Source: a virus. Taken from it: DNA of 64,000 nucleotides. The notes below the pieces were generated by a model. That model saw only the letters and a program-made list of their open reading frames with translations, was not told the DNA's origin and did no database searches. Position 1 is the stretch's first letter. Each line of letters begins with the position of its first letter. Below are positions 5,738-64,000 of the stretch, in pieces. The translations under genes were made by a program, and so were the position numbers. The stretch spans positions 64,001-128,000 of the IMG/VR virus record IMGVR_UViG_3300037797_000117, one strand, 5' to 3'.

Positions 5738-6220
5738 ATGCACAAGCCCCGCACCACGATGTTGAGCTGGGACTGGAAAGAACAGCCGGACCTGGACACG
5801 CTGGGCCGCGTTATAACCACCATGTCCAACGGAACGGTCCACCTGCACCAGGTCGACGACGGCACCGACAACATCACCATCCTCCTGTCCGACACCCCCC
5901 TCGACGCGCGGGCCGTCCTGGACGCCTACGACGCGGCCTGCGAACCGCAGGCCGGCACCGACCTTGTCGAGCTGTGGCTGATGCACGACACGATCACCCC
6001 GTACGAGGTTCGGGAGGTGTGGACCAACTGGGCGCGTGCCCTCATCCCCCCGGTCGGTCGGGTGCTGTACCTGAGCACCTTCGGTCCCGGCAACAGCTCC
6101 GGAACCTGGAAGATCAGGTCGGTTGAGCAGGTCCGGCCCGACGCCTACCAGGTCACCCTCACCGACGTCGACCCGTCCGACCCGGACCCGCTGGAACCGA
6201 TCCGGCGCCCGGAAGCCTGA
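5738..6220 (+). CDS. hypothetical protein
   Basis: GAGGAGG RBS; 160 aa. Confidence 0.7.
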   Translation: MHKPRTTMLSWDWKEQPDLDTLGRVITTMSNGTVHLHQVDDGTDNITILLSDTPLDARAVLDAYDAACEPQAGTDLVELWLMHDTITPYEVREVWTNWARALIPPVGRVLYLSTFGPGNSSGTWKIRSVEQVRPDAYQVTLTDVDPSDPDPLEPIRRPEA

Positions 6221-6245
6221 CTCCCCGGTCGTGCCGGCCAGACAC

Positions 6246-6278
6246 GAAACGGCCCCCGCACCGCGCGGGGGCCGTTTC
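6246..6278 (+). terminator. terminator hairpin
   Basis: GAAACGGCCCCCGC/GCGGGGGCCGTTTC inverted repeat. Confidence 0.65.
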
Positions 6279-53132: not shown

Positions 53133-54035
53133 ATGACAACAGCGTCGCCAGACCCGGACCGGGGCAGCGTGTGGGTAGCTGCGGTCGGGACGCACTACCT
53201 CGGCGAGGGATGGACCGACCTCGGCTACATCGACGAAACCGGCCTCGTGCCCGATCCGGACCCGCCACCCGCCCGGGCACCGGGCGGCACCGCCGACTTC
53301 GTCGACCGGCTCGACGCCGCCGTCGACGGGCGCTGCGGCTGCGGCTGCGGCACCCCCATCACCGACAGCTCCCCGTCGGCGTACTACGCCACCGCCCACT
53401 GCCAGTCGGCGTGGATGAACCAGCACGCCACCAACCCGGGCGAGGTGTACTCCCGCCCCGACGCCGCGTCGGTCCTCGTCGGCTCCGACGACACCCCGAT
53501 CCCGCTGCGCGAGCCGGCCCGGTCCCCCACCGGCGGCGGGTCGGGTGGCGCCAGCGGCGGGTGGGCGCCGCCGGGCGACCGGTTACAGGTGTACGGGCCG
53601 GGCACGCTTCCCGACTTTCTGTCCTACCACCGGTGGTGCGACGGTTGCCGCACCGCGACCGTGCCGGTCATCGTCGAAGACGACACCCACGACATCACGG
53701 TCGTCGGCGTGTGGGAACCGGTCCGGTCCTACCCGACGGGCCACCGCCAGTGGTGCTCGGCATGCGAAGCCACCTCGGCCGGGCCGGTGTACCTCCCGAC
53801 CGTGGAAACCGACCGGGGCCCGGTCCCCGGCTGGCTGTTCACCCTGTCCGGAAGTTACGGCCGGGTGTCATCGGCCCTGTCCCGGCTCGCGCTGGACCGG
53901 GCCGCCAACCGGCGGCTCCTCGTCGACTCGACGTGGCGCAGCATGGAACGCGACCTGGGCCGCTTCGAGCGGGAATGGTCCGGTCGGGCCGGGCGCCGGG
54001 CCGCCGCCGACCGGTGCACCGACCCACGCCTGTGA
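53133..54035 (+). CDS. hypothetical Cys-rich protein
   Basis: GWTDLGYIDE; CGCGCG; 300 aa. Confidence 0.6.
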   Translation: MTTASPDPDRGSVWVAAVGTHYLGEGWTDLGYIDETGLVPDPDPPPARAPGGTADFVDRLDAAVDGRCGCGCGTPITDSSPSAYYATAHCQSAWMNQHATNPGEVYSRPDAASVLVGSDDTPIPLREPARSPTGGGSGGASGGWAPPGDRLQVYGPGTLPDFLSYHRWCDGCRTATVPVIVEDDTHDITVVGVWEPVRSYPTGHRQWCSACEATSAGPVYLPTVETDRGPVPGWLFTLSGSYGRVSSALSRLALDRAANRRLLVDSTWRSMERDLGRFEREWSGRAGRRAAADRCTDPRL

Positions 54036-54304
54036 TTCTCACCTGGGACGGGGAACGTCCCCTCGCCGACGCCGACATGTTGGCCTCCCTGTATGAGGTG
54101 TCACCCCGCACGGTGCGGCGGCACTGCACCCCGGCCCGGTACCTGCCAAGGGTGGGGCTGCCCCGCGGTGTCGGCGGCACCGCCCTGTATGACGCCATCG
54201 CCGCCGGGGACGCCCTGGCCGGGATCGCCCCCCGCCCCGAGCGGACGCTGGCGGCGTTGCGGTACCGCGCTGAGCAGGAACGCAAGGGTCAGCGGGGACG
54301 CTGA
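54032..54304 (+). CDS. small HTH-like protein
   Basis: MLASLYEVSPRTVRRHC. Confidence 0.5.
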   Translation: MILTWDGERPLADADMLASLYEVSPRTVRRHCTPARYLPRVGLPRGVGGTALYDAIAAGDALAGIAPRPERTLAALRYRAEQERKGQRGR

Positions 54305-54328
54305 CACAGATCCACAGACAACAGGGGG

Positions 54329-54358
54329 TTGCGTCGTTCCCGGGGTACGGGGTACGGT
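54329..54358 (+). promoter_or_regulatory. operator-promoter copy 14 (heads the tRNA/ncRNA array)
   Basis: TTGCGT-N18-TACGGT; spacer CGTTCCCGGGGTACG. Confidence 0.7.
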
Positions 54359-54404
54359 AGTGGAGCAAGTACGGCGGAGGGGTTGCAACCCGAGCCGGGC
54401 GAGC

Positions 54405-54501
54405 AAAGCGATGGTGTAGCGGTAGCACCCCGCCCCGAGTACCCCCGCTGGCAGGTGGGGGGAAACGGGCGGCGGGCCAGGTTCGAATCCTGGGCGCTTG
54501 C
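54405..54501 (+). ncRNA. tRNA-like RNA with a 33-nt hairpin replacing the anticodon loop
   Basis: D arm TGGTGTAGCGGTAGCAC, stem CCGCC/GGCGG, T arm CCAGGTTCGAATCCTGG, acceptor AAGCG/CGCTT. Confidence 0.7.
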
Positions 54502-54734
54502 GGAAGACACGGCGGGGCACCGGCCGTGTCACCCCTGAAGGACACCTCTACTGCCAGGTAGGCGGTGTTCAACCCACAGGTGCAAGGACCCGGAAGCTAG
54601 CGCCGGGAACGAACTCCGGTACCGGGGTACCGGTGCGAGGACGGGGGGAACAATTTCCCCTTAATCCGCCCAGGAAGGGCTCCCGTCAGGGAAGCACCTG
54701 GGACCGGCCTCGCACCGGGCGCCGGAACCACACT

Positions 54735-54814
54735 GGGGATGCATGGGCAAGCCCAACCGGGCCGGCGGCAAGCCGGCAACCGAGGGAACGTCGGTTCGAC
54801 TCCGACCATCTCCA
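54735..54814 (+). ncRNA. tRNA-like RNA with Ala/tmRNA-type acceptor (G3-U70, A73) and atypical D and anticodon arms
   Basis: GGGGATG...GTCGGTTCGACTCCGAC CATCTCC A. Confidence 0.65.
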
Positions 54815-54995
54815 CAGGGCAATGCTGCTGAGCACGCTCCCCGACCCCCACACCAGGGGCACGTCGGGCCTAGGGCAAAAGGCAGCCGGCGGCGACCGTA
54901 ACCGGCACGAAGGACGCAAGGCTCAGGAGGGCGTCCCACGAACGGCTAGGGATGAGGCCGTTCACCCCGTTCCCCCGACGGAAGGGCACCCGACG

Positions 54996-55223
54996 ATGGC
55001 CGACAGGACGCTCACGATCACCCACCACGGTCAGACCTTCGACGTGGTCCGGCACAAGCCGAAGTACACCCACCTACGCGTCCCGTCCAGCGACCCCGAC
55101 CGCGACCCCTACGACGTGGTCGTGGACAAGGACGGCGCCCGCTGCACCTGCAAGGGCCACCTCTTCGGCAAGATGTGCCGGCACAAGAAGCTGGCGCAGA
55201 GCCTGGCCGGTCAGACCAGCTAG
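54996..55223 (+). CDS. SWIM zinc-finger protein
   Basis: YDV...RCTCKG...MCRH. Confidence 0.8.
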   Translation: MADRTLTITHHGQTFDVVRHKPKYTHLRVPSSDPDRDPYDVVVDKDGARCTCKGHLFGKMCRHKKLAQSLAGQTS

Positions 55224-55266
55224 AACAACCCGCACACCCGTTTCCCCAACGGAAAGGATCCCCACC

Positions 55267-55395
55267 ATGTGGTTGCTGGACATGCTGTTCGGCAGCTCCG
55301 ACGACTCGACCGACGAGGTTTACGGCGGCGACGACGGCTACGACGGCGCCGACTGGGAAGACGACTTCGACGGCTACGACGAAGACGAGTTCTGA
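55267..55395 (+). CDS. tiny very acidic peptide
   Basis: GAAAGGA RBS; MWLLDMLFGSSDDSTDE... Confidence 0.55.
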   Translation: MWLLDMLFGSSDDSTDEVYGGDDGYDGADWEDDFDGYDEDEF

Positions 55396-55405
55396 GGCGA
55401 TCGCC

Positions 55406-55588
55406 GTGGCCTACCTGGTGTACGACGCCATCAACGCGGTCTTCGAGGTGTGCTGCGCCGACGACGGCTGCAACGGAGGAGTGGTCGGCACGTTCGACTA
55501 CGAGGACGACGCCGACGAGTACGCCGAAGACCACGAATACGAGCACGACGTCGCCGCGTACGCCGACTACAACGGGGAGGTGTTCTGA
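55406..55588 (+). CDS. small acidic protein, paralogue A
   Basis: YDAINAVFEVCCADDGCNGGVVGTFDYEDDA. Confidence 0.6.
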   Translation: MAYLVYDAINAVFEVCCADDGCNGGVVGTFDYEDDADEYAEDHEYEHDVAAYADYNGEVF

Positions 55589-55592
55589 CCGG

Positions 55593-55748
55593 GTGGCCGA
55601 CTACCACTACGACGAGCTGTCCGACGCCTACGACGTCTACTGCGAAGACGGCTGCAACCCGAACAACGACGGCTACCTCGGCAGCTTCGACGACGAACGC
55701 GACGCCATCCTCACCGCCGACAACGACGAGACGTACCACTACGGCTAG
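55593..55748 (+). CDS. small acidic protein, paralogue B
   Basis: YDELSDAYDVYCEDGCNPNNDGYLGSFDDERDA. Confidence 0.6.
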   Translation: MADYHYDELSDAYDVYCEDGCNPNNDGYLGSFDDERDAILTADNDETYHYG

Positions 55749-56073
55749 CGAGGTGCCAGCCGGGCACCGGTTCAGCCAAAAAGCTAGACGGCCACCGGCC
55801 GAGCACCTACCGTGACACCCAAGCATCACCGACCAGCAGGGAGCCCCACCGTGACATTCGGACAGGCCAACGCCCACCGGCAGCCATTGCTGCCCGGCTG
55901 GCAGGCCATGGCCGAATGCCCGTCGCGATCCACGACCGGCGAGTACGCGAAGCAGGCCAACCTGGGGATCAGGTGGCGGATGTAGGCGCAGCACATCGAG
56001 CGCCGAGAGCCGCCCTCCCCCCACCGGGACAGGGCGGCTCTCCCGTTTGACCGGACAACTCCACAGCACCCTT

Positions 56074-56146
56074 TCGGGCGTAGCTCAACTGGAAGAGCAG
56101 CGGTCTCCAAAGCCGCAAGTTGCAGGTTCGAGTCCTGTCGCCCGGG
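56074..56146 (+). tRNA. tRNA-Trp(CCA)
   Basis: Cloverleaf; loop CTCCAAA; G73. Confidence 0.9.
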
Positions 56147-56536
56147 CGTAACACGAACGGTGCCCTTGATGTCGGGCGCGCACGGCACCATTTGAAAAGT
56201 CCATAGTGGATGGCAAAGAAAATGTTGCCGCTCACCCGGGCAGGCCCCAGGGGCTGCCGAGGTGAGCGAGGACGCCAACCCGGAACCCGCACCAGCCACC
56301 GGCACAGGTCCCCAGCATCATCGGGGCAGCACCAACGGCGGTGAACCGGTCGGGATTCGGCGGGGCGTCTACATACAGCAGCAAGCTGCCCCCGTCACGA
56401 ACGGTAGGGGTAGTTGCCAGGCGGCCCGTGATTCAGCGAGCGGGACGCGGCCGGCAGCAGACGTCGCCGGGCCCCGAGCCGACCCCGCAAGAGGGGCCGG
56501 AAGCCGGACATAGGGCCGGCGCCCGGCGGCGTCAAC

Positions 56537-56609
56537 GGGCCTGTAGCGCAACTGGTAGAGCACCACGCTGGCAGCGTGAAGGTTGGCGGTTCAAGTCCGC
56601 CCAGGTCCA
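56537..56609 (+). tRNA. tRNA-Ala(GGC)
   Basis: Loop CTGGCAG; G3-U70; A73. Confidence 0.9.
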
Positions 56610-56839
56610 CAGGGAGCGTCCAACAACGGTCTCCCATCAATCTGGTACCGCCGGGATAAGAGCCCCCGGGGGGAGCTGGCGACCGGCCCTGCACCGCGGC
56701 GGGATGCACACCTGCCCCGGAGGCCGTCTGGTCGCCTCGCCGGTCTGGCATGACCGGCGGGAACGGCGGTACCTGACAACTTCAACCGGCCTGGTCGCCG
56801 GCAACCTCCCGAGTCCTCGTGTCGACACGAGGAGGAGCC

Positions 56840-57148
56840 ATGACCGCGTTGGATGAAGCGATCGAGCAGTTGCAGCTCACGGAAGTGTTCGCCGCCGGCG
56901 AATACGACTACGAGTGGTGCGAGTTCAAGGCCTGGGTAGCCCCTTCGGGACGCTACTTCTGGTTTGCCGACTCGGGTTGCTCGTGCCGCGGGTACGGCGA
57001 GGACTCGTTCTACTCGGTGTCGGACTTCAGCGATGGAGCCCGCTCGACGTTGGAGCGCGCCTTCCGGGCCTGGCGGCAGAGCAGCGGCAACGGCCCGCTC
57101 GAAGGTGTCGACGAGGCCATGGAGAAGCTCCGGCAGCTCCGGCCCTGA
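56840..57148 (+). CDS. hypothetical phage-type protein
   Basis: GGAGGAG RBS; YDYEW...DSGCSC. Confidence 0.75.
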   Translation: MTALDEAIEQLQLTEVFAAGEYDYEWCEFKAWVAPSGRYFWFADSGCSCRGYGEDSFYSVSDFSDGARSTLERAFRAWRQSSGNGPLEGVDEAMEKLRQLRP

Positions 57149-57173
57149 CGACACCGCCCCTTCGGGGGCACCC

Positions 57174-57248
57174 GGTCCGCTAGCTCAATGGAAGAGCATC
57201 TGACTCTTAATCAGCCGGTTCCCGGTTCGAGCCCGGGGCGGACTACCA
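57174..57248 (+). tRNA. tRNA-Lys(CTT)
   Basis: Loop CTCTTAA; encoded CCA. Confidence 0.92.
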
Positions 57249-57402
57249 GGTACAGCAGTGCGTAACGCACCCCACCGGGGTGTGGCGTGGCGAGCACCGC
57301 CGACCGTGGGAGCGGTACGTGGTGTGGCGCCGGGCAGGGCTCTCCGTGCTCCCACACGCGATCCCGCGGGCCGGTTCCCGCAGCCGAACGTGAGTCTGTG
57401 CC

Positions 57403-57474
57403 GCGTCTGTACCTCAGTGGTCAGAGGACCGTCTGCTAAGGCGGAAGTCGCGGGTTCGAATCCCGCCGGGCGCA
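57403..57474 (+). tRNA. atypical tRNA: CTGCTAA (Ser GCT) on a short-variable-arm body with an irregular anticodon loop
   Basis: Acceptor GCGTCTG/CGGGCGC A; stem CCGTC/GGCGG encloses only 6 nt. Confidence 0.55.
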
Positions 57475-57480
57475 CGTCGT

Positions 57481-57608
57481 GCCTAGGAAGCTCAATCGGT
57501 GGAGCATCCACGTTCCCGAGCCGCAGACCGTGTCGACGCGGTCACGGCGGCCAGCGCGTACGAGCTGGGGAAGGTGGAAGGTTGCGGGTTCGAGTCCCGC
57601 CCTGGGCC
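57481..57608 (+). ncRNA. tRNA-like RNA with a 62-nt insert in the anticodon loop
   Basis: GCCTAGG/CCTGGGC acceptor, GCTC/GAGC D stem, TCCAC/GTGGA stem, GCGGGTTCGAGTCCCGC T arm. Confidence 0.75.
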
Positions 57609-57615
57609 AGCACGT

Positions 57616-57706
57616 GGTTCGCAATGCCCGGCTTGCCTCCGGGTATGTCGCCGCCTCAACGGGCGGCGGTGGGTGTTGCCGGGGTTCGACTCCCCGGACG
57701 CGGATC
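57616..57706 (+). ncRNA. four-way-junction RNA with a T arm
   Basis: GGTTCGC/GCGGATC closing stem, two long hairpins, CCGGGGTTCGACTCCCCGG. Confidence 0.5.
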
Positions 57707-57748
57707 TAGGCTCCCGCGTGGCCGGATGCCAGCCGACGAACCACCCTT

Positions 57749-57820
57749 GCCCTCCTGGCGTAACCGGAAGCGCACGCGGTTGAAGCCCGCGAGGTTCCCG
57801 TTCGATTCGGGAGGAGGGTA
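57749..57820 (+). tRNA. tRNA-Phe(GAA)
   Basis: Loop TTGAAGC; full cloverleaf. Confidence 0.8.
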
Positions 57821-57940
57821 CTTGCGGAGAGAAGGGGAGCGCGGGTAGTCCGCGCGGAGATAGGCATCGTCTTCGGGCTGGCCTCCCGGGACCACCGAGC
57901 CCGGCCACGTACACCCGTCCCCCTCTCCGCATTCAACCCT

Positions 57941-58013
57941 GCGGACCTGGTGAGGCTGGTGCTCACGTCGGTCTTCCAAACCGAAGACGCGGGTTCGATC
58001 CCCGCGGTCCGCT
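57941..58013 (+). tRNA. tRNA-Gly(TCC)
   Basis: Loop CTTCCAA; GCGG acceptor; U73. Confidence 0.9.
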
Positions 58014-58300
58014 CAACCCTCACCCATCGCCTGCACGTACAGGGCGCGGAAGTTGGGGCAGTCGTGCAGGACCGCCACCCGCCGGGCGGCTTCGGCCTTG
58101 CCGGAGCTGACCTGGGTGATGGGGGCCATGACGACCTGCTGCCGGCCGCGGACCGCAGACCGGCCCGGTACCCATCCCGCTTGGCCGGCCGGGAGATGGT
58201 CGGTGTCGACCGGGTCGGCGTCGAACAGGCGCCGCCGCCCGTCGCGGCAGCGAAGCCACTGCACGTACACGGGGCAGTATTCGCATCGGCGGATGGCCAC
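58013..58300 (-). CDS. small Zn-binding hypothetical protein
   Basis: CEYC...FDADP...LHDCP. Confidence 0.6.
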   Translation of the reverse strand: MAIRRCEYCPVYVQWLRCRDGRRRLFDADPVDTDHLPAGQAGWVPGRSAVRGRQQVVMAPITQVSSGKAEAARRVAVLHDCPNFRALYVQAMGEG

Positions 58301-58466
58301 GTCGAACGCAACGACCAGGTGCCGGCGGCGGTTACCACCCGATCGGCGTCGCCCGCCAGGCCAGCAAAGGTGGACATGTCCCCTCCGGTGGGGACAACGA
58401 CTTGGTTATCGGTCAGGACCCGGTTAGCCGGTTAGGTTCCACACCACCACCCGGCATGATCAGCAC

Positions 58467-58709
58467 GTGGAATTAGCGATCATCGCAGCAGCCCTCATCG
58501 TGGCCGTGGCCATCATGTTCGTCGGCACCCGCCGCAACTACCAGCCCCGCCGCTACCGCCCCGCCGGGCAGCCGGCCCGCCCACCAGCACCGGCCGCGTC
58601 CGCACCGCTGAAGCTCCCCGACGCCGGTCCCGACGTCATCACCTACCGGCTGCCACGCGCGCTGCCCACCCCGAACCGGGCATGGCGCACCACCGGCAGC
58701 CGCCGATAG
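58467..58709 (+). CDS. small membrane protein
   Basis: N-terminal TM. Confidence 0.5.
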   Translation: MELAIIAAALIVAVAIMFVGTRRNYQPRRYRPAGQPARPPAPAASAPLKLPDAGPDVITYRLPRALPTPNRAWRTTGSRR

Positions 58710-58720
58710 CGTGCCCGGGG

Positions 58721-59122
58721 TCAGTCGCAGGCGGTGCCGTCCTTGTCACGGTCCAACGCAGGCCGGTACCCGTCGTCGCGGCCGCGACGTAGAGGTGCCG
58801 CACCCGCCTCGCGGGCGGCCGTGCAGTTGGCGTAGTACCGGTCCCGGATATCGGCCGGTTCCACCGGTTCCGGAACAGACGTAGCCGGCGGCGGGGCGGC
58901 GGTCGTGGGCGATGCCGACGGGGCAGGGGAGCTGACCACCGCGGTGAACGTCGGTGTCGGTGAGGTGAACGTCGGCGACGGCCGCGGCGAGTTCACCACC
59001 CGGATCGGGTTCGGGTCCGGCTCCACGTCGGTTCCGACACACGACCCGATCCCGGCCAGGCACGCCAACACGGCGAGGATGCCACCGGAGATGAGAAGCC
59101 CGTTACGGGTGGTCGGATGCAC
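58721..59122 (-). CDS. Excalibur calcium-binding domain surface protein
   Basis: YYANCTAAREAGAAPL...GYRPALDRDKDGTACD; N-terminal TM. Confidence 0.85.
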   Translation of the reverse strand: MHPTTRNGLLISGGILAVLACLAGIGSCVGTDVEPDPNPIRVVNSPRPSPTFTSPTPTFTAVVSSPAPSASPTTAAPPPATSVPEPVEPADIRDRYYANCTAAREAGAAPLRRGRDDGYRPALDRDKDGTACD

Positions 59123-59135
59123 GAAGGTCTCCCTT

Positions 59136-59209
59136 GCCCTGGTGGCCCAACTGGCAGAGGCGCCGCTTTCAAAAGGCGGAGGTTGCGGGTTCGACTCCCG
59201 CCCGGGGCA
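59136..59209 (+). tRNA. tRNA-Leu(CAA), short variable arm
   Basis: Loop TTCAAAA; Leu-type D arm GGCAGAGGCG; A73. Confidence 0.8.
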
Positions 59210-59469
59210 CGTAAGCGTGACGCGGCCCGGCCGGTGAACGGTACCGGCCGGGCCGCGCAAGACAGCATAGTTCCCCGCACTGTCCGTCAGGTAGACGGCA
59301 TGACACCAACTCAGCGGGAACTCGTCACCGAACTCATCGTCGCCGAACTGGCCGGTATTACGGCCGCCTCCCTCGCAGCTGGCGCCGACCCGGCCGAAGT
59401 CGTCGCCGAGCTGGACCGCCGGATCCGGTCGATCAGGGAAAAAGGCGCCCGGTAGCTCCGGGCGTCAAC

Positions 59470-59544
59470 GCCGCCGTAGCTCAGCCAGGTCGGAGCGCTT
59501 CCTTGGTATGGAAGAGGCCGGGAGTTCGAGTCTCCCCGGCGGCT
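59470..59544 (+). tRNA. tRNA-Thr(GGT)
   Basis: Loop TTGGTAT. Confidence 0.9.
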
Positions 59545-59632
59545 CGTCACGTGGGTAGCAGCGGGAGGAACACCCGCTGAGGTCGATCGCCGGGCCGGTG
59601 GAAGCAAGCTGCCGACACTGCCCACGTACAAC

Positions 59633-59705
59633 GCGGACGTAGCTCAGTTGGAAGAGCCCGGCGTTGCCGACGCCGAGGTGGCCGGTTCGAGCCCGGTCGT
59701 CCGCT
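59633..59705 (+). tRNA. tRNA-Gly(GCC)
   Basis: Loop TTGCCGA; U73. Confidence 0.9.
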
Positions 59706-59744
59706 CACGACTTGATCCACCCCACGTGAAGGAGGTGATCCGGG

Positions 59745-60188
59745 GTGAGCCAGGTACTCGTGCTCAACGCCGACTGGGGCCCGCTCCACTGGGTCACCAT
59801 CCGGCACGCCGTCAGGATGCTCGTACGGCAGGTCGCCGAGGTCCACGAGGCCGAACCCGATCGGCTCATCGGCATCTTCCCGCTGCCGCGCGTCGTGCGG
59901 CTCGTGGCGTACGTGAAGACGAAGTGGCGACACACCCGCGGCCCGGCCTGGTCGAGGCCCGGTGTCCTCGCCCGAGACGGATATACCTGCGTCTACTGCG
60001 GTGGATGCGCGTCGACCGTCGACCATGTCCTTCCCCGTTCCCGTAACGGCGGGAACACCTGGTCCAACACCGTCGCCGCTTGCGGCGGCTGCAACCAGCG
60101 CAAGGGTGACCGCACCCCGGCCGAGGCCGGCATGAAGCTGCGGATCGTCCCGGCCACGCCCACCTGGGCGTCGCTGCTGCGTTGGTAG
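59745..60188 (+). CDS. HNH endonuclease
   Basis: VLVLNA...VLARDGYTCVYCG...TVDHVLPRSRNG.NTW.N.VAAC..CN.RKG. Confidence 0.92.
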   Translation: MSQVLVLNADWGPLHWVTIRHAVRMLVRQVAEVHEAEPDRLIGIFPLPRVVRLVAYVKTKWRHTRGPAWSRPGVLARDGYTCVYCGGCASTVDHVLPRSRNGGNTWSNTVAACGGCNQRKGDRTPAEAGMKLRIVPATPTWASLLRW

Positions 60189-60231
60189 CCCGGTGGGGCG
60201 CCGCTCTGTGGCGGTGCGGCGCTCCACCCAT

Positions 60232-60304
60232 TCCGCGCTGGTGCAACTGGCAGCACGCTCGGCTCTGACCCGAGAGATTGGACGTTCAAATCGTCCGCGC
60301 GGAG
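60232..60304 (+). tRNA. tRNA-Gln(CTG)
   Basis: Loop CTCTGAC; U1-A72; G73. Confidence 0.88.
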
Positions 60305-61010
60305 CGGGATGAAGTCACACCGTGAGTCAGCGAGCCGGGGCGCCGGGGCGCTGCCAATACTCGGTCCCTGAACGGATCCCGGGTGACGGAAGCCTGGCCC
60401 AAACCCGTGACAGTCGGAGAGACGACGACACCCCGGAGCGACGGGGGGCAACGAGGTGCGGGGCCTTGCCCGTGACCGCCCTCGGCCACCGGTGGAAGCC
60501 CGGTCGCGACGCGGACCGGGCCAAGCAGGGACCACGGTGCACGGTGGGAGCCCGTAAAGCGACTTGGTCGGCTGTGGTCCACGGACGCGTGGCCTGCTCG
60601 CAAGCCTGGAAGTGCTCTACCCGCGTGAAGAGGTACAGGGTCCGGCACCTGCCCCGCCGGAGGTCACCGGTAGGACTGGCGTCCGGCGGAGCTTAATCCG
60701 AGGTGGCGGGTTCAATTCCCGTTCGGTGCACGTAGGGAAGCTGGGCAACAGCCGTGAGGAACCGCAGGATCTTGTGAGGGCAACCCTCGACACTCCCGCA
60801 GGCCGACACCGGCGCGTCATTCGTTGCAGGGCCCAGCACGTCGCCGTGGGTGGCTTGGTTCCCCGGTGGCACAAGGTCATCCGAAAAGGGCGAAGCCCCA
60901 CGGGGAGCGTCCCCACCAGTAGAACGCAGGCCGGCAGCACCGGCACCGCGGGGTTTATCCGGCGATCGCGACCGGAGAGTGCGAACCCGCCACGCTGGGA
61001 GGAGACCACC
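60305..61010 (+). ncRNA. candidate large structured ncRNA
   Basis: 700 nt with no convincing ORF, many hairpins, internal T arm GCGGGTTCAATTCCCGT. Confidence 0.4.
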
Positions 61011-61011
61011 T

Positions 61012-61182
61012 GGTCGCTGTAGCTCAACAGGTAGAGCAGCGGACCACCGGACGATAGGTACGCGCTGAACAACGACGCCGTGCCTGGCCGCCTCTGTTGG
61101 ACTCTGCGCCGCATGCGGGACGTACGCCTCGGCTCCAGTCCGGTGCCTCCGTGGGTTGCGGGTTCGAGCCCCGCCGGCGGCC
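61012..61182 (+). ncRNA. His-type tRNA-like RNA (G-1:C73) with a 104-nt insert in the anticodon loop
   Basis: GGTCGCTG/CGGCGGCC, canonical D and T arms, GCGGA/TCCGT stem extended by CACCGGAC/GTCCGGTG. Confidence 0.75.
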
Positions 61183-61188
61183 CTCAAT

Positions 61189-61278
61189 TGTCGTGTAGCT
61201 CAATTGGTGAGAGCACCCGCACCGAGCGGGGCCGGGCGACGGCCCGGACGGATGCCGGTTCGACTCCGGCTGCGACAG
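61189..61278 (+). ncRNA. tRNA-like RNA with a 5-nt anticodon loop and long variable arm (G73)
   Basis: TGTCGTG/TGCGACA; CCCGC-ACCGA-GCGGG; CCGGGC-GACG-GCCCGG. Confidence 0.65.
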
Positions 61279-61284
61279 CTCGTG

Positions 61285-61403
61285 GAATCGTGTAGCTCAA
61301 CTGGCAGAGCACCGTCGTGTGGACGTAGCCGGCCCCTCAGGAGGAGACGGCCTAAGCGCGATACCCGGGCGATGCGGAGTTCGATCCTCCGCCACGATCC
61401 CCA
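61285..61403 (+). ncRNA. His-like tRNA-like RNA with expanded anticodon and variable region
   Basis: ATCGTG/CACGAT acceptor, C73 plus CCA; CCGTC-GTGTGGA...-GACGG with a 29-nt loop. Confidence 0.65.
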
Positions 61404-61515
61404 CCAACCGGCGCCCATCGTGGACGGTCGGGTGATCCGGAGGTGTCGGCGTATCTGCCAGGGCGATCTGTCGTTGGCTAGAGGCCCACCGTGTCCACGC
61501 CGAAAGGATCACCCT

Positions 61516-62025
61516 GTGCGTCGGTTCCGTTATCTGGCCCTGTCCGTTCTGGCGATCGGGCTGGCTACCCTGTTCGCGCCTACCGCTGCGCACGCCGCGG
61601 TGACTCCGGGGGCGTGGTGTAAGAAGGCAGAGACCGGCGCATACGGCCAGTCAACCGACGGCGACTGGTACCGGTGCACCCTGAACGCCGGGGCCACGCT
61701 TCCCAAATGGATGCCGTCGTCCCCGCCGCCGCCCGGGCAGAACCCCAGCGCTCCGGCCCCGTCGAAGCGGACCCCGGACGGGCCGTGCCTGGACAGCGAA
61801 GCCGGGCAGGAGTTCAGCACCTCCGCGGGCAAGCTGTACGTGTGCCAGAAGAAGGGCACCAGCTACGCGTGGACCCTCGTCACCGGCGGCGACGACCAGC
61901 CGGGAACGCTACCAAAGACCGGCGTCGACGGGCGGGTCGCGGCCGCAGCCGGCACAGCGCTTGTCGCCGCCGGCGGTGGCCTGTTCTGGGCGATGCGCCG
62001 CCGCCGTGTGAGTTTCCAAGCCTGA
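61516..62025 (+). CDS. sortase-anchored (LPXTG) surface protein
   Basis: Signal peptide ending AHA, LPKTG, TM, RRRR tail. Confidence 0.85.
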   Translation: MRRFRYLALSVLAIGLATLFAPTAAHAAVTPGAWCKKAETGAYGQSTDGDWYRCTLNAGATLPKWMPSSPPPPGQNPSAPAPSKRTPDGPCLDSEAGQEFSTSAGKLYVCQKKGTSYAWTLVTGGDDQPGTLPKTGVDGRVAAAAGTALVAAGGGLFWAMRRRRVSFQA

Positions 62026-62043
62026 CCCGACCCTGAGCAAGCA

Positions 62044-62080
62044 AGCGAGCCCGGCCCCCCATCACAGGGCCGGGCTCGCT
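62044..62080 (+). terminator. hairpin
   Basis: AGCGAGCCCGGCCC/GGGCCGGGCTCGCT. Confidence 0.5.
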
Positions 62081-62091
62081 CTGGTCGGAAC

Positions 62092-62165
62092 GCCGGCGTA
62101 GCTCAGGTTGGTTGAGCAGCGCACTTGTAATGCGAAGGTCGCCGGTTCAAATCCGGCCGCCGGCT
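62092..62165 (+). tRNA. tRNA-Thr(TGT)
   Basis: Loop CTTGTAA. Confidence 0.9.
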
Positions 62166-62188
62166 CGTTCGTCTGGGTAAGGAGGAAT

Positions 62189-62503
62189 GTGGAGCTGGAC
62201 TTCTCCGAGTTTCACCCGACCGGGGACCACTGGCCCGGCACCGCGCGCTGCCAGGCCCTCTACGGGGGGTGGCGCCGACACCTGTACCTGGCATGGGTGT
62301 TTCACCGCCGTGACCAGGTGCTCGGCCCGTTCCGGAAGGTGTTGTGCTGCCCGTTCGGCCGGCACCGGTGGCAGGTCTGGTACAGCCAGGAGGAGCACGG
62401 CGGCCCGGCGCAGGTTCACCCGCTGTGCCCGGACTGCGAAACCACCCGGCTCCCGTCCGAACACGACGTCGACAACAAGCCGGACCTGCCATGGCTGGAG
62501 TAG
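62189..62503 (+). CDS. hypothetical protein
   Basis: AAGGAGG RBS; CPFGRH...CPDC. Confidence 0.65.
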   Translation: MELDFSEFHPTGDHWPGTARCQALYGGWRRHLYLAWVFHRRDQVLGPFRKVLCCPFGRHRWQVWYSQEEHGGPAQVHPLCPDCETTRLPSEHDVDNKPDLPWLE

Positions 62504-62612
62504 CCGGACTCATCTTGGCTTCCCGACGAGAGGAAGAACAGCGTGGAAGGTGCACCAGCTCCCGAGACGTAGAGAGCCCGAAACGCGGGCTCCCTACGCG
62601 AGGGAGCAGACG

Positions 62613-63020
62613 ATGTCCGACACGGACAAGGACCAGCCCTGGTGGGTGACCGCCGAATGGTGGGAGCCCAGCCACACCTACTGTGACGTGTCCGCCTCGC
62701 GCCCGTTCGGCGCGCGTGGACCCCGCCGCCCGTGTAACCTGCCCGCCCGGCCGGTCGTCGCCCGTGACCGGCCCGGGTTCTCCGGGTGGCGCCGCGAACC
62801 CCGCTGCCGCTGGTGGCCTGTCTGGGACCGGCCGGGCCGCCGGTACGCGCTCGGCGGCGTGCCCCGCTGGTTCGTCCACCACGTGTGGACCGGCGCCGAA
62901 CGGGCCGCGGTGCGAGACGACTGCCGCCGCGCGGCCGCCGAGTACCACGCCACCCGCGAAGTCGACACCATGCCCAGCGTCAGGCAGCATCGGCACAACG
63001 CGATGTGGCTCTGGGACTGA
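62613..63020 (+). CDS. hypothetical Trp/Arg-rich protein
   Basis: MSDTDKDQPWWV...HRHNAMWLWD; GGGAG RBS. Confidence 0.65.
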   Translation: MSDTDKDQPWWVTAEWWEPSHTYCDVSASRPFGARGPRRPCNLPARPVVARDRPGFSGWRREPRCRWWPVWDRPGRRYALGGVPRWFVHHVWTGAERAAVRDDCRRAAAEYHATREVDTMPSVRQHRHNAMWLWD

Positions 63021-63231
63021 ACCGAAGGGAGAGCCGACGTGGTCTACCCCCGACGCTGCCCGGTCTGTTCCGCCCCGGGTGGCTTCCACGACTACGGCGT
63101 CCACGCCGATGTGCGGCGCCAGATCGCCGAGGCCGCACCCGTCACCCCGGACGAGCCCGGCGAGGACGGCGGGGTGGTGACGATCCGGACGGACGACAGG
63201 CTCTAGCCTCGCGTCCGGGATGTGGGGAATT

Positions 63232-63304
63232 GCCGGGGATGCATTACGGGTGGTGCGTCCGTTTCGTACGCGGAAGGAGCCGGTTCGAGCCCGGCCCCCC
63301 GGCT
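63232..63304 (+). tRNA. tRNA-Thr(CGT)
   Basis: Loop TTCGTAC; GCCGGGG/CCCCGGC; slightly irregular D arm. Confidence 0.75.
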
Positions 63305-63312
63305 CCCCCACA

Positions 63313-63342
63313 TTGTGTCGCTCTGGGGGTACGGGGTACGCT
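63313..63342 (+). promoter_or_regulatory. operator-promoter copy 15
   Basis: TTGTGT-N18-TACGCT; spacer CGCTCTGGGGGTACG; ATG 7 nt later suggests a leaderless mRNA. Confidence 0.65.
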
Positions 63343-63348
63343 GAGCCA

Positions 63349-64000
63349 ATGCCTATCGACCTGAGTAAAACCCCACTGGCCGACAAGTACGCGGCCGCCG
63401 GCGTCAGCCTTCAGAAGAAACGCCTCGACGGTGTCCGCGCCGCCGTCTACCTGGTCCTCGACTTCTCCCGCTCCATGCGCGGCTTCTACCGCGACGGCTC
63501 GGTCCAACACCTCACCGAGCAGATCCTCGCCCTCGCCGCCCACTTCGACGACGACGGCAGCGTCCCGGTCATCCTGTTCGACAGCTACGCCCGGGAACCG
63601 GTGAACGTGTCGGTCGACGATTTCGCCGGCTCCATCGGCCGGATCGTCGCCCAGGCCGGAACCATGGGCTCGACCAACTACGCCTCCGCCATGCACATGG
63701 TCATCGGCCACCACCGGGTCCACGGGGGCGGCCAGCCCGCCTTCGTCATCTTCCAGACCGACGGATCCCCCGACTCCAAGTCCGCCGCCGAACAGACCCT
63801 GTGCGCCGCCGCGACGATGCCGATCTTCTGGCAGTTCATCGGGTTCGGCGACGACGAGTTCAAGTTCCTCCGCAAGCTCGACGACTTGAAGGTCCCGAGA
63901 AAGCGCGTCGTCGACAACGCCGGCTTCTTCCCCGCCGGCTTCAACCCGAAGGGCATTCCGGACGGCGTGCTGTACGACAACCTGATGTCCGAGTTCCCGC
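63349..64000 (+). CDS. vWA domain TerF-like protein (3' partial)
   Basis: VYLVLDFSRSM (MIDAS), GSTNY, FQTDG, PIFWQFIGFG, VVDNAGFF. Confidence 0.9.
   Translation, partial: MPIDLSKTPLADKYAAAGVSLQKKRLDGVRAAVYLVLDFSRSMRGFYRDGSVQHLTEQILALAAHFDDDGSVPVILFDSYAREPVNVSVDDFAGSIGRIVAQAGTMGSTNYASAMHMVIGHHRVHGGGQPAFVIFQTDGSPDSKSAAEQTLCAAATMPIFWQFIGFGDDEFKFLRKLDDLKVPRKRVVDNAGFFPAGFNPKGIPDGVLYDNLMSEFP

Follow-up and report, generated by a model that had tools for sequence, protein, structure and literature searches.

The 64,000-nucleotide stretch of DNA analysed here, which we call the window, comprises bases 64001-128000 of the virus record IMGVR_UViG_3300037797_000117, a 166,387-bp genome that has direct terminal repeats and is rated complete. 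The phage has a GC content of 69% and carries siphovirus-type terminase, portal, and capsid genes. ARAGORN identifies 39 tRNA genes in it, 38 of which lie on the + strand at 118.4-139.7 kb of the genome and constitute a tRNA array; approximately 38 of the tRNAs in the phage are normal. Small open reading frames (ORFs) within the array encode an HNH endonuclease, a vWA-TerF-like protein, and a DUF7574 protein. Our subject is the first 7 kb of the array (window positions 54405-61403), where canonical tRNA genes are interspersed with nine further elements, named A to H and X (Table 1). A preliminary description had counted 11 normal tRNAs in this span; we find nine canonical tRNAs plus element C, which has a 6-nt anticodon loop.

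Table 1. Positions in the window and main features of the elements found among the canonical tRNA genes
Element	Position	Strand	Features	Detection
A	54405..54501	+	T arm, D-like arm, weak acceptor stem (5 of 7 pairs)	ARAGORN with introns allowed; parser
B	54735..54814	+	80-nt alanine-type tRNA-like RNA; acceptor GGGGAUG/CAUCUCC with G3:U70, A73	
C	57403..57475	+	Cloverleaf with 6-nt anticodon loop	ARAGORN ("tRNA-???"); Rfam tRNA model, 58.3 bits
D	57481..57608	+	128-nt cloverleaf; anticodon stem runs on into a 62-nt Y-shaped insert	Rfam tRNA model, 44.7 bits
E	57616..57742	+	127-nt RNA of five helices, closed by GGUUCG/CGAACC and enclosing a T-arm-like hairpin; no cloverleaf	
X	60350..60730	+	~380-nt conserved non-coding RNA; ends form an acceptor stem (G1-C72, C2-G71, G3:U70, A73) beside a T arm	
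F	61012..61182	+	tRNA-His-like cloverleaf with G-1:C73; anticodon stem GCGGA/UCCGU encloses 104 nt	Rfam tRNA model, 37.7 bits; strict cloverleaf scan
G	61189..61279	+	Cloverleaf with 5-7-nt loop (CACCGAG), 6-bp long variable arm, G73	ARAGORN; Rfam tRNA model, 42.9 bits
H	61285..61403	+	tRNA-His-like; loop GUGUGGA, C73	ARAGORN with introns allowed; comparison with tRNA-His

tRNA arms with altered anticodon regions

The tRNA-shaped genes with enlarged anticodon loops that had been noticed from the letters alone were recovered with ARAGORN, introns being allowed, and with Rfam models. ARAGORN called 54405-54501, 57602-57704, 61013-61183, and 61287-61401. The Rfam tRNA model (RF00005, gathering threshold 29 bits) scored C, D, F, and G above threshold, and it skipped the inserts in its matches at 57481-57608, 61013-61182, and 61189-61278; in F, 103 nt of the anticodon arm were skipped. 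A, B, E, and H gave no RF00005 match at E values up to 1. In keeping with the undescribed system supposed in the preliminary description, no described Rfam family except tRNA itself exceeded its threshold.

A canonical 7-nt loop with U33 and a readable anticodon is absent from these elements, as the anticodon stems enclose 33 (A), 6 (C), 62 (D), 104 (F), or 29 (H) nt. The sizes given earlier for A, D, and F agree with those returned by our parser, and ARAGORN divides the 29 nt of H into a 7-nt loop and a 22-nt insert. The pairings quoted as extending the stems, CACCGGAC/GTCCGGTG and TTCCC/GGGAA, are present in the sequence. Except in H, the inserts have neither U33 nor an anticodon at their edges, and position 33 is a C in the insert edges of D, F, and A and of the D homologues in two related phages, L022 and L047. 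The arms around these inserts had been called intact, but the acceptor stem of A is weak. Three sites had been listed as aberrant tRNA forms (54735, 57616, and 61189); B and G are indeed tRNA-like, but E forms no cloverleaf.

A strict scanner was run over both strands of the whole genome. It demanded a 5-bp T stem around TTCRANN, an acceptor stem with 7 of 7 pairs, a 4-bp D stem, and a 5-bp anticodon stem at canonical spacing, and left the loop size free. All 20 of its + strand matches fall within the tRNA array: 17 have a 7-nt loop, and the others are C, D, and F. When applied to the 49-kb tRNA array of Streptomyces phage Yaboi, the same scanner returned loop sizes of 7 nt only. The single stray match on the - strand (genome 136282-136440, beyond the window) encloses 96 nt and overlaps a + strand ORF. 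Fold z-scores against shuffled sequence were -3.8 for D, -2.6 for G, -2.1 for B, -1.1 for A, -0.5 for H, and +1.2 for F, with only D folding clearly better than shuffled sequence.

Selection on the folds of D, C, and B

Metagenomic phage contigs (among them L022, L023, L024, L025, L027, and L047), reached through the DUF7574 and HNH proteins, served as relatives. The canonical tRNA order is common to these contigs and the window phage (Trp, Ala, Lys, Phe, Gly, then Leu, Thr, Gly, Gln). In IMG/VR, a search for relatives with an upstream protein gave no match, one with the terminase gave only short fragments lacking the array, and an exact-pattern search with the sequences of X and E gave no match. 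Comparison of the whole 7.2-kb region with the phage collection gave matches limited to the canonical tRNAs and the HNH gene.

The insert of D is made up of a stem (P1), a two-tier hairpin with a G-UCGA-C end, and a second hairpin with CGUACG in its loop; this structure is also the minimum-energy fold of D and of the L022 copy (z -5.5). Homologues are found at L027:1258-1388, L022:13639-13765, and L047:5879-6005, before tRNA-Phe in L027 and after tRNA-Gln in the other two, whereas L023 and L025 have no D in the interval from C to E. The four members have a same-shaped insert of 60-65 nt, in which a stem continuing the anticodon stem leads to the two-tier G-UCGA-C hairpin and to a second hairpin with the loop CGUACG or UCGCGA. 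In their alignment, 95.2% of cells are paired and 9 of 26 pairs are changed on both sides, compared to 0-2 double-changed pairs in controls in which the partners were slid by 1-3 columns. These double changes occur in all parts of the fold: the acceptor, D, anticodon, and T helices and those of the insert. Because the homologues keep the same insert shape with paired changes, D is not a product of decay.

A covariance model, R1, gave the four D members 117-129 bits and did not exceed 57 bits with any canonical tRNA. With scores of 33-41 bits or less against the same model, F, G, H, and A are not D-type members. We define a D-type RNA as a full cloverleaf with a 60-75-nt insert, two hairpins with self-complementary apical loops, and compensatory changes; these features occur together in D of the window and in its homologues in L027, L022, and L047, and the same design is found in Streptomyces phages of cluster BE. 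Contrary to the initial impression of a single family, the inserts in the window do not belong to one family, and homologues of an element's own insert were found for D only. The 17 matches to a motif of the D insert in a metagenome scan are all chance matches inside coding sequence. GTCGAC, considered and rejected as a genome-wide repeated hairpin site, occurs 259 times, which is the expectation at 69% GC.

C is carried by five phages, in which its loop, according to the drawing of the stem, ranges from approximately 6 nt to approximately 3 nt and is never 7 nt. Across these phages the acceptor and T stems are 100% paired, and seven pairs are changed on both sides, four of them among the seven pairs of the acceptor. 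As a separate observation, the spacer between tRNA-Lys and C (window 57250-57400), in which several hairpins occur, is a candidate for a small RNA or a regulatory element; it is approximately 95% identical in L023 and L025, exceeding the conservation of the flanking tRNAs.

B, which has homologues in L022, L023, and L047, has a mini hairpin where a tRNA has its D arm, followed by a middle hairpin that varies and by a T arm; an anticodon loop is absent. Its middle part varies from 30 to 55 nt across the four phages, while the acceptor stem, including G3:U70 and A73, is invariant in all four and three of the five T-stem pairs are changed on both sides. The first four acceptor pairs of this type together with A73 are the identity set of alanyl-tRNA synthetase (AlaRS). 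A genome scan with the 3' end of B matched only host tRNAs of many phyla. The other identity features pointed out previously, G-1:C73 in F and G73 with a long variable arm in G, are present as well. The compensatory changes among the homologues of D, C, and B, and the comparison of F and H with the phage's own tRNA-His described below, bear out the earlier suggestion that the arms have been kept by selection and are not decaying.

A structurally matching RNA occurs in Streptomyces phages. Model R1 also picked an unannotated 133-nt stretch in phage Yaboi (NC_048730.1 99514-99646; L048 17515-17647), which blastn locates in 47 cluster-BE Streptomyces phages at 74-100% identity. No annotated feature lies under the match in 45 of the 47, and two Evy records have a partial match under the coding sequence of a HIT protein. 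From 10 of the Streptomyces sequences, RNAalifold derived a full cloverleaf with an anticodon stem that is lengthened to 7 bp and forks into two hairpins; of the 43 pairs in this consensus, 17 are compensatory. The self-complementary hairpin apices, G-UGCA-C and A-GCGC-U, are invariant and the stems covary. In the reverse direction, a model built from the Streptomyces RNA (R2) ranked D of the window first among non-self matches, with 55 bits compared to at most 43.4 bits for canonical tRNAs. Both groups tend to have A at position 8 in place of the near-universal U (9 of 10 Streptomyces members and 3 of 4 D-family members). We regard the D family and the Streptomyces RNA as the same kind of RNA, possibly homologous. 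The genome announcements for these Streptomyces phages list tRNAs and one tmRNA only, and our literature searches found no description of such tRNA-like RNAs. Yaboi has two further unannotated stretches of this nature: an 81-nt stretch (L048 3822-3902) that matches only the tRNA-like ends of the tmRNA model and is an analogue of B, and a 115-nt tRNA match with an insert (L048 4143-4257).

The remaining elements: A, E, X, F, G, and H

A is the first tRNA-like gene behind the putative array promoter, and its anticodon stem, CCGCC/GGCGG, encloses a 33-nt hairpin. At the corresponding position, L022, L047, and L023 have tRNA-like genes with other expanded arms. Within the insert of A, the stretch GGGGAAACGGG (window 54459-54469) is the exact complement of a motif in 5' untranslated regions, CCCGTTTCCCC, of which there are five copies near start codons. 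The motif has the form CCCGTTTCCCC(A)ACGG and lies 20-30 nt upstream of the start codon (genome 62348, 87977, 119237, 141051, and 141692). A search for antisense targets returned a non-random pattern for the A insert only, the remaining inserts matching random coding sequence. The CCCGTTTCCCC motif was not found in the examined stretches of the relatives, and the GGGGAAACGGG stretch is mostly paired in the predicted fold of A. The complementarity is a lead to a possible cargo role for this insert. Downstream of A, a 39-40-nt block (window 54575-54614) with GGTACC-type repeats is 100% identical in L022 and L047, compared to approximately 80% around it, and is probably a promoter or operator element.

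E occurs in four phages, with homologues in L023, L025, and L047, and its RNAalifold consensus has 40 pairs, 4 of them compensatory. X is 77-84% identical in L022 and L047, and RNAalifold, unprompted, paired its 5' GCGCCG with its 3' CGGUGC beside the T arm; the G:U pair in third position is kept in all three phages, with an A following the stem. These ends are reminiscent of tmRNA (SsrA), in which the two RNA ends close a tRNA-Ala-like acceptor stem and T arm and a large structured domain replaces the anticodon arm. However, X as a tmRNA gave no Rfam tmRNA match and no ARAGORN call at default settings, with only inconsistent calls at lowered thresholds. A possible frame of 10-12 codons ending in ALPA-stop (Ala-Leu-Pro-Ala) is kept in all three phages at an atypical position and shows, between two of them, a synonymous CUA/UUG change and a 3-nt indel; as a putative tag frame it is only a lead. 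Two possible identities for X are a phage tmRNA that has diverged very far and a tRNA scaffold of an extreme kind. In one relative, a tyrosine integrase gene (L022 14403-15407) lies directly downstream of the tRNA-like 3' end of X, an arrangement that usually marks either an attachment site or an element that has integrated at a tRNA-like site.

F, G, and H are arranged in tandem as tRNA-His-like paralogues and were found in this genome only. The first 26 nt of F match the phage's own tRNA-His at 21 positions, and G-1:C73 is common to both. F departs from tRNA-His in four of its seven acceptor pairs and in every one of the five pairs of the anticodon stem, and all of these positions still pair. 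The anticodon stem of F is lengthened by CACCGGAC/GUCCGGUG, and its insert is without a folding signal (z +1.2). The loop of H equals the real His loop at 6 of 7 positions and is followed by its 22-nt insert, which is flanked by GGA repeats; the variable region is 23 nt long. As in F, the stems of H are changed at most positions relative to tRNA-His yet continue to pair, which argues for a maintained fold in both, although this is a weaker argument than the comparisons across genomes. G appears to be serine-like because of its G73 and 6-bp long variable arm. When homologues of F, G, and H were sought through the neighbouring LPXTG protein, the gene was located outside the array in relatives, with no tRNA-like genes nearby.

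Proposed non-decoding tRNA mimics and competing explanations

We propose, with a probability of roughly 0.55, that these elements are genes for tRNA-derived, non-decoding RNAs, that is, tRNA mimics that would be processed along with the array. They retain the parts of a tRNA read by processing and charging enzymes (acceptor stem, D/T elbow, and T arm), and their anticodon loop is lost or replaced by additional structure. The RNAs would most likely be transcribed with the tRNA array from putative promoters at approximately 54330 and 54590 and excised by host RNase P and RNase Z as stable L-shaped RNAs. Given how RNase P, RNase Z, the CCA-adding enzyme, and the alanyl-, histidyl-, and seryl-tRNA synthetases (AlaRS, HisRS, and SerRS) are known to recognise their substrates, the RNAs may be excised along with the tRNAs and some may be charged without decoding. 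The predicted identities are alanine for B and X, histidine-like for F and H, and serine-like for G. Such mimics could be bound or charged by factors that recognise tRNA without its anticodon. The two hairpins of D, with their self-complementary apical loops, may bind a partner or pair two copies of the RNA. Our best guess at a use is interference with host factors directed at tRNA, such as defence nucleases, transferases, or the trans-translation machinery. The earlier proposal of a natural tRNA scaffold thus finds strong support in D, B, and C and weak support in F, G, H, and A.

Several observations weigh against this proposal. No homologue of F, G, or H was found in any relative examined, and the folds of F, H, and A are no better than those of shuffled sequence, so part of the tRNA-like set may be junk. 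Odd elements are gained and lost between close relatives, as expected of dispensable genes; those special to relatives include L022:12664-12784, L025:2870-3022, and a 66-nt element with a mini anticodon hairpin, L024:10522-10587. Covariation within the clade of the window is based on 4-5 sequences per family, and the homology of D with the Streptomyces RNA is only modestly supported, by a 12-bit margin.

The first three of these points also speak for tRNA pseudogenes, duplicates in a fast-changing array that acquired insertions and are decaying without function, as do the two separate insertions and imperfect acceptor stem of H. We consider this explanation unlikely for the set as a whole: pairing of the arms has survived many substitutions, both within the D, C, and B families and when F and H are compared to tRNA-His, the D/T elbow motifs are intact in all elements, and 47 phages retain the Streptomyces counterpart, whose insert loops do not vary. 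If only F, G, H, and A are considered, decay has an appreciable, though still minority, chance of being correct; F, G, and H may have been copied from tRNA-His more recently, or have partly decayed since.

An unlikely alternative is that these are tRNA genes with a new type of short intron, cut by an endonuclease and rejoined by the phage RNA ligase to give working tRNAs. H is the best case: it reads CCGUC-GUGUGGA-(22 nt)-GACGG with GGA repeats at the ends of the insert, and removing the 22 nt after GUGUGGA restores a normal loop and a near-perfect tRNA-His anticodon arm. The location of an RNA ligase gene within the array is also in keeping with splicing. However, insert removal restores no normal loop in D, its three homologues, F, or A, which lack U33 and a conserved anticodon at their edges, and the edges vary among homologues (GUUCCCG in the D of the window, UCCCCUU in L027). 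The loops of C are too short instead of too long, canonical tRNAs for the implied amino acids are already present in the phage, and the inserts are conserved and covarying, which is unusual for discarded spacers. RtcB (PF01139) is absent from the phage genome, in which a splicing endonuclease was not searched for. Rfam families of introns, ribozymes, GOLLD/ROOL, and tmRNA gave no match, and the Rfam group I intron model (Intron_gpI) gave none in 54000-64000 at E values up to 1 and none in 60290-61420 at E values up to 10. Protein-spliced introns, one of the possibilities raised in the preliminary description, are unlikely. Nor do the inserts behave as mobile repeats of the miniature inverted-repeat (MITE) type: all are single-copy, and blastn comparison of each with the genome found nothing beyond chance matches of 15-19 nt.

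Comparably low odds attach to a purely structural role, in which the elements would be RNase P and RNase Z cut signals that split the array transcript and free the small mRNAs between tRNAs. A and B lie directly behind the putative promoters and ahead of small ORFs, and the parts kept (acceptor stem, T arm, and elbow) are those required by RNase P. Cut signals would leave unexplained the invariant insert loops in 47 Streptomyces phages and the exact alanine identity set of B, and D, F, G, and H adjoin tRNAs that already provide cutting sites.

It is highly improbable that the unit is formed by the 3' half of F and the 5' half of G as a Y-RNA-like partner of Ro60 (Rsr), like bacterial YrlA: the Rfam YrlA model (RF02553) does span 61129-61238 end to end, with two outer stems beyond the tRNA-like part, and Yaboi encodes a Ro-like protein beside its tRNA array, but the score of 33.7 bits reaches half of the 69 bits set as the gathering threshold, tRNAs that lie side by side resemble a permuted YrlA (a weak match of 22.3 bits also falls on the C-D junction, 57443-57508), a 7-bp acceptor stem is closed within F and another within G, and no Ro60/TROVE gene (PF05731) was found in the 166-kb phage in a search that matched the control genomes.

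YrlA is itself a non-decoding tRNA mimic, as the RNAs of the array are proposed to be. It is found in bacteria and phages, travels with Ro60, and has a long protein-binding stem as the equivalent of the anticodon arm. YrlA is circularly permuted, with its ends in the long stem and a loop-closed acceptor, whereas the RNAs of the array end at the acceptor stem. The resemblance to tmRNA lies in the acceptor stem with G3:U70 and A73 and the T arm, shared with X and B, and in the location, as tmRNAs are encoded in the tRNA arrays of large actinophages, Yaboi among them. It differs in that neither X nor B is recognised as a tmRNA by Rfam or ARAGORN, B has no room for a reading frame and that of X is doubtful, and the D arm is normal, and alanine identity absent, in D, F, G, and H. 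Since tmRNA already provides a natural example of a tRNA scaffold that carries a large insert, the idea put forward here is not wholly unprecedented.

Other known systems share particular features with the elements of the array. Ponchon and Dardel reportedly engineered a tRNA scaffold for recombinant RNA by extending the anticodon stem into a cargo. Its architecture is identical, with the acceptor, D, and T arms kept for processing and protection, but it is a laboratory design, unlike the natural gene family under selection described here. tRNA genes with group I introns likewise have an insertion in the anticodon region of an otherwise intact bacterial or phage tRNA gene. Group I introns are approximately 200 nt or longer, have a conserved catalytic core, and leave a normal loop after removal; the present inserts are 22-104 nt long, match no intron model, and mostly lack loop remnants. 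Species 1 and 2 of T4 (rnaC and rnaD) are small stable RNAs in a phage tRNA cluster that are processed with it.

The tRNA mimic interpretation can be extended, speculatively and with a fairly low chance of being right in full, to a class of RNAs on tRNA scaffolds in large actinophages, some of them charged with alanine, histidine, or serine yet incapable of decoding, and with D-type copies that pair through their two self-complementary hairpin loops. These would serve the phage as decoys or sponges for host factors whose attack on tRNA, or sensing of it, goes through the acceptor end or elbow (for example defence nucleases, nucleotidyltransferase toxins, and trans-translation). An RNA ligase (PF09414) and an inositol-monophosphatase-family protein are encoded in the array directly beyond the end of the window. 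In T4, RNA ligases of this sort mend tRNAs cleaved by host nucleases, and the presence of one here would fit a phage attacked by tRNA nucleases. The usual explanation for tRNA arrays in phages is codon usage or evasion of host tRNA nucleases, and annotation of the arrays consists of canonical tRNAs and tmRNA only; the arrays of at least two actinophage lineages also carry conserved tRNA-shaped RNAs that appear not to decode. As 47 cultured Streptomyces phages with laboratory hosts carry one such RNA, its expression, processing, charging, and loss phenotype are directly testable. True mimics or decoys would constitute an RNA-based layer of phage counter-defence and a natural precedent for the engineered tRNA scaffold, and even if the elements are junk, such genes demonstrate where automatic tRNA annotation misleads.

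The HNH endonuclease gene (window 59745-60188) encodes a protein 73-79% identical to chromosomal proteins of Phytohabitans, Actinoplanes, and Asanoa, which hints at a Micromonosporaceae host. Its identity to many Micromonosporaceae chromosomal proteins is also a clue to gene exchange with the host. A gene for an LPXTG-anchor protein (window 61516-62025) lies inside the array and adjoins H, and because its homologue has another location in the genomes of relatives, the array acts as a landing site for relocated genes. Far from the array, ARAGORN also calls a 93-nt tRNA-Ala(GGC) on the - strand (window 6182-6274), a call without Rfam support.

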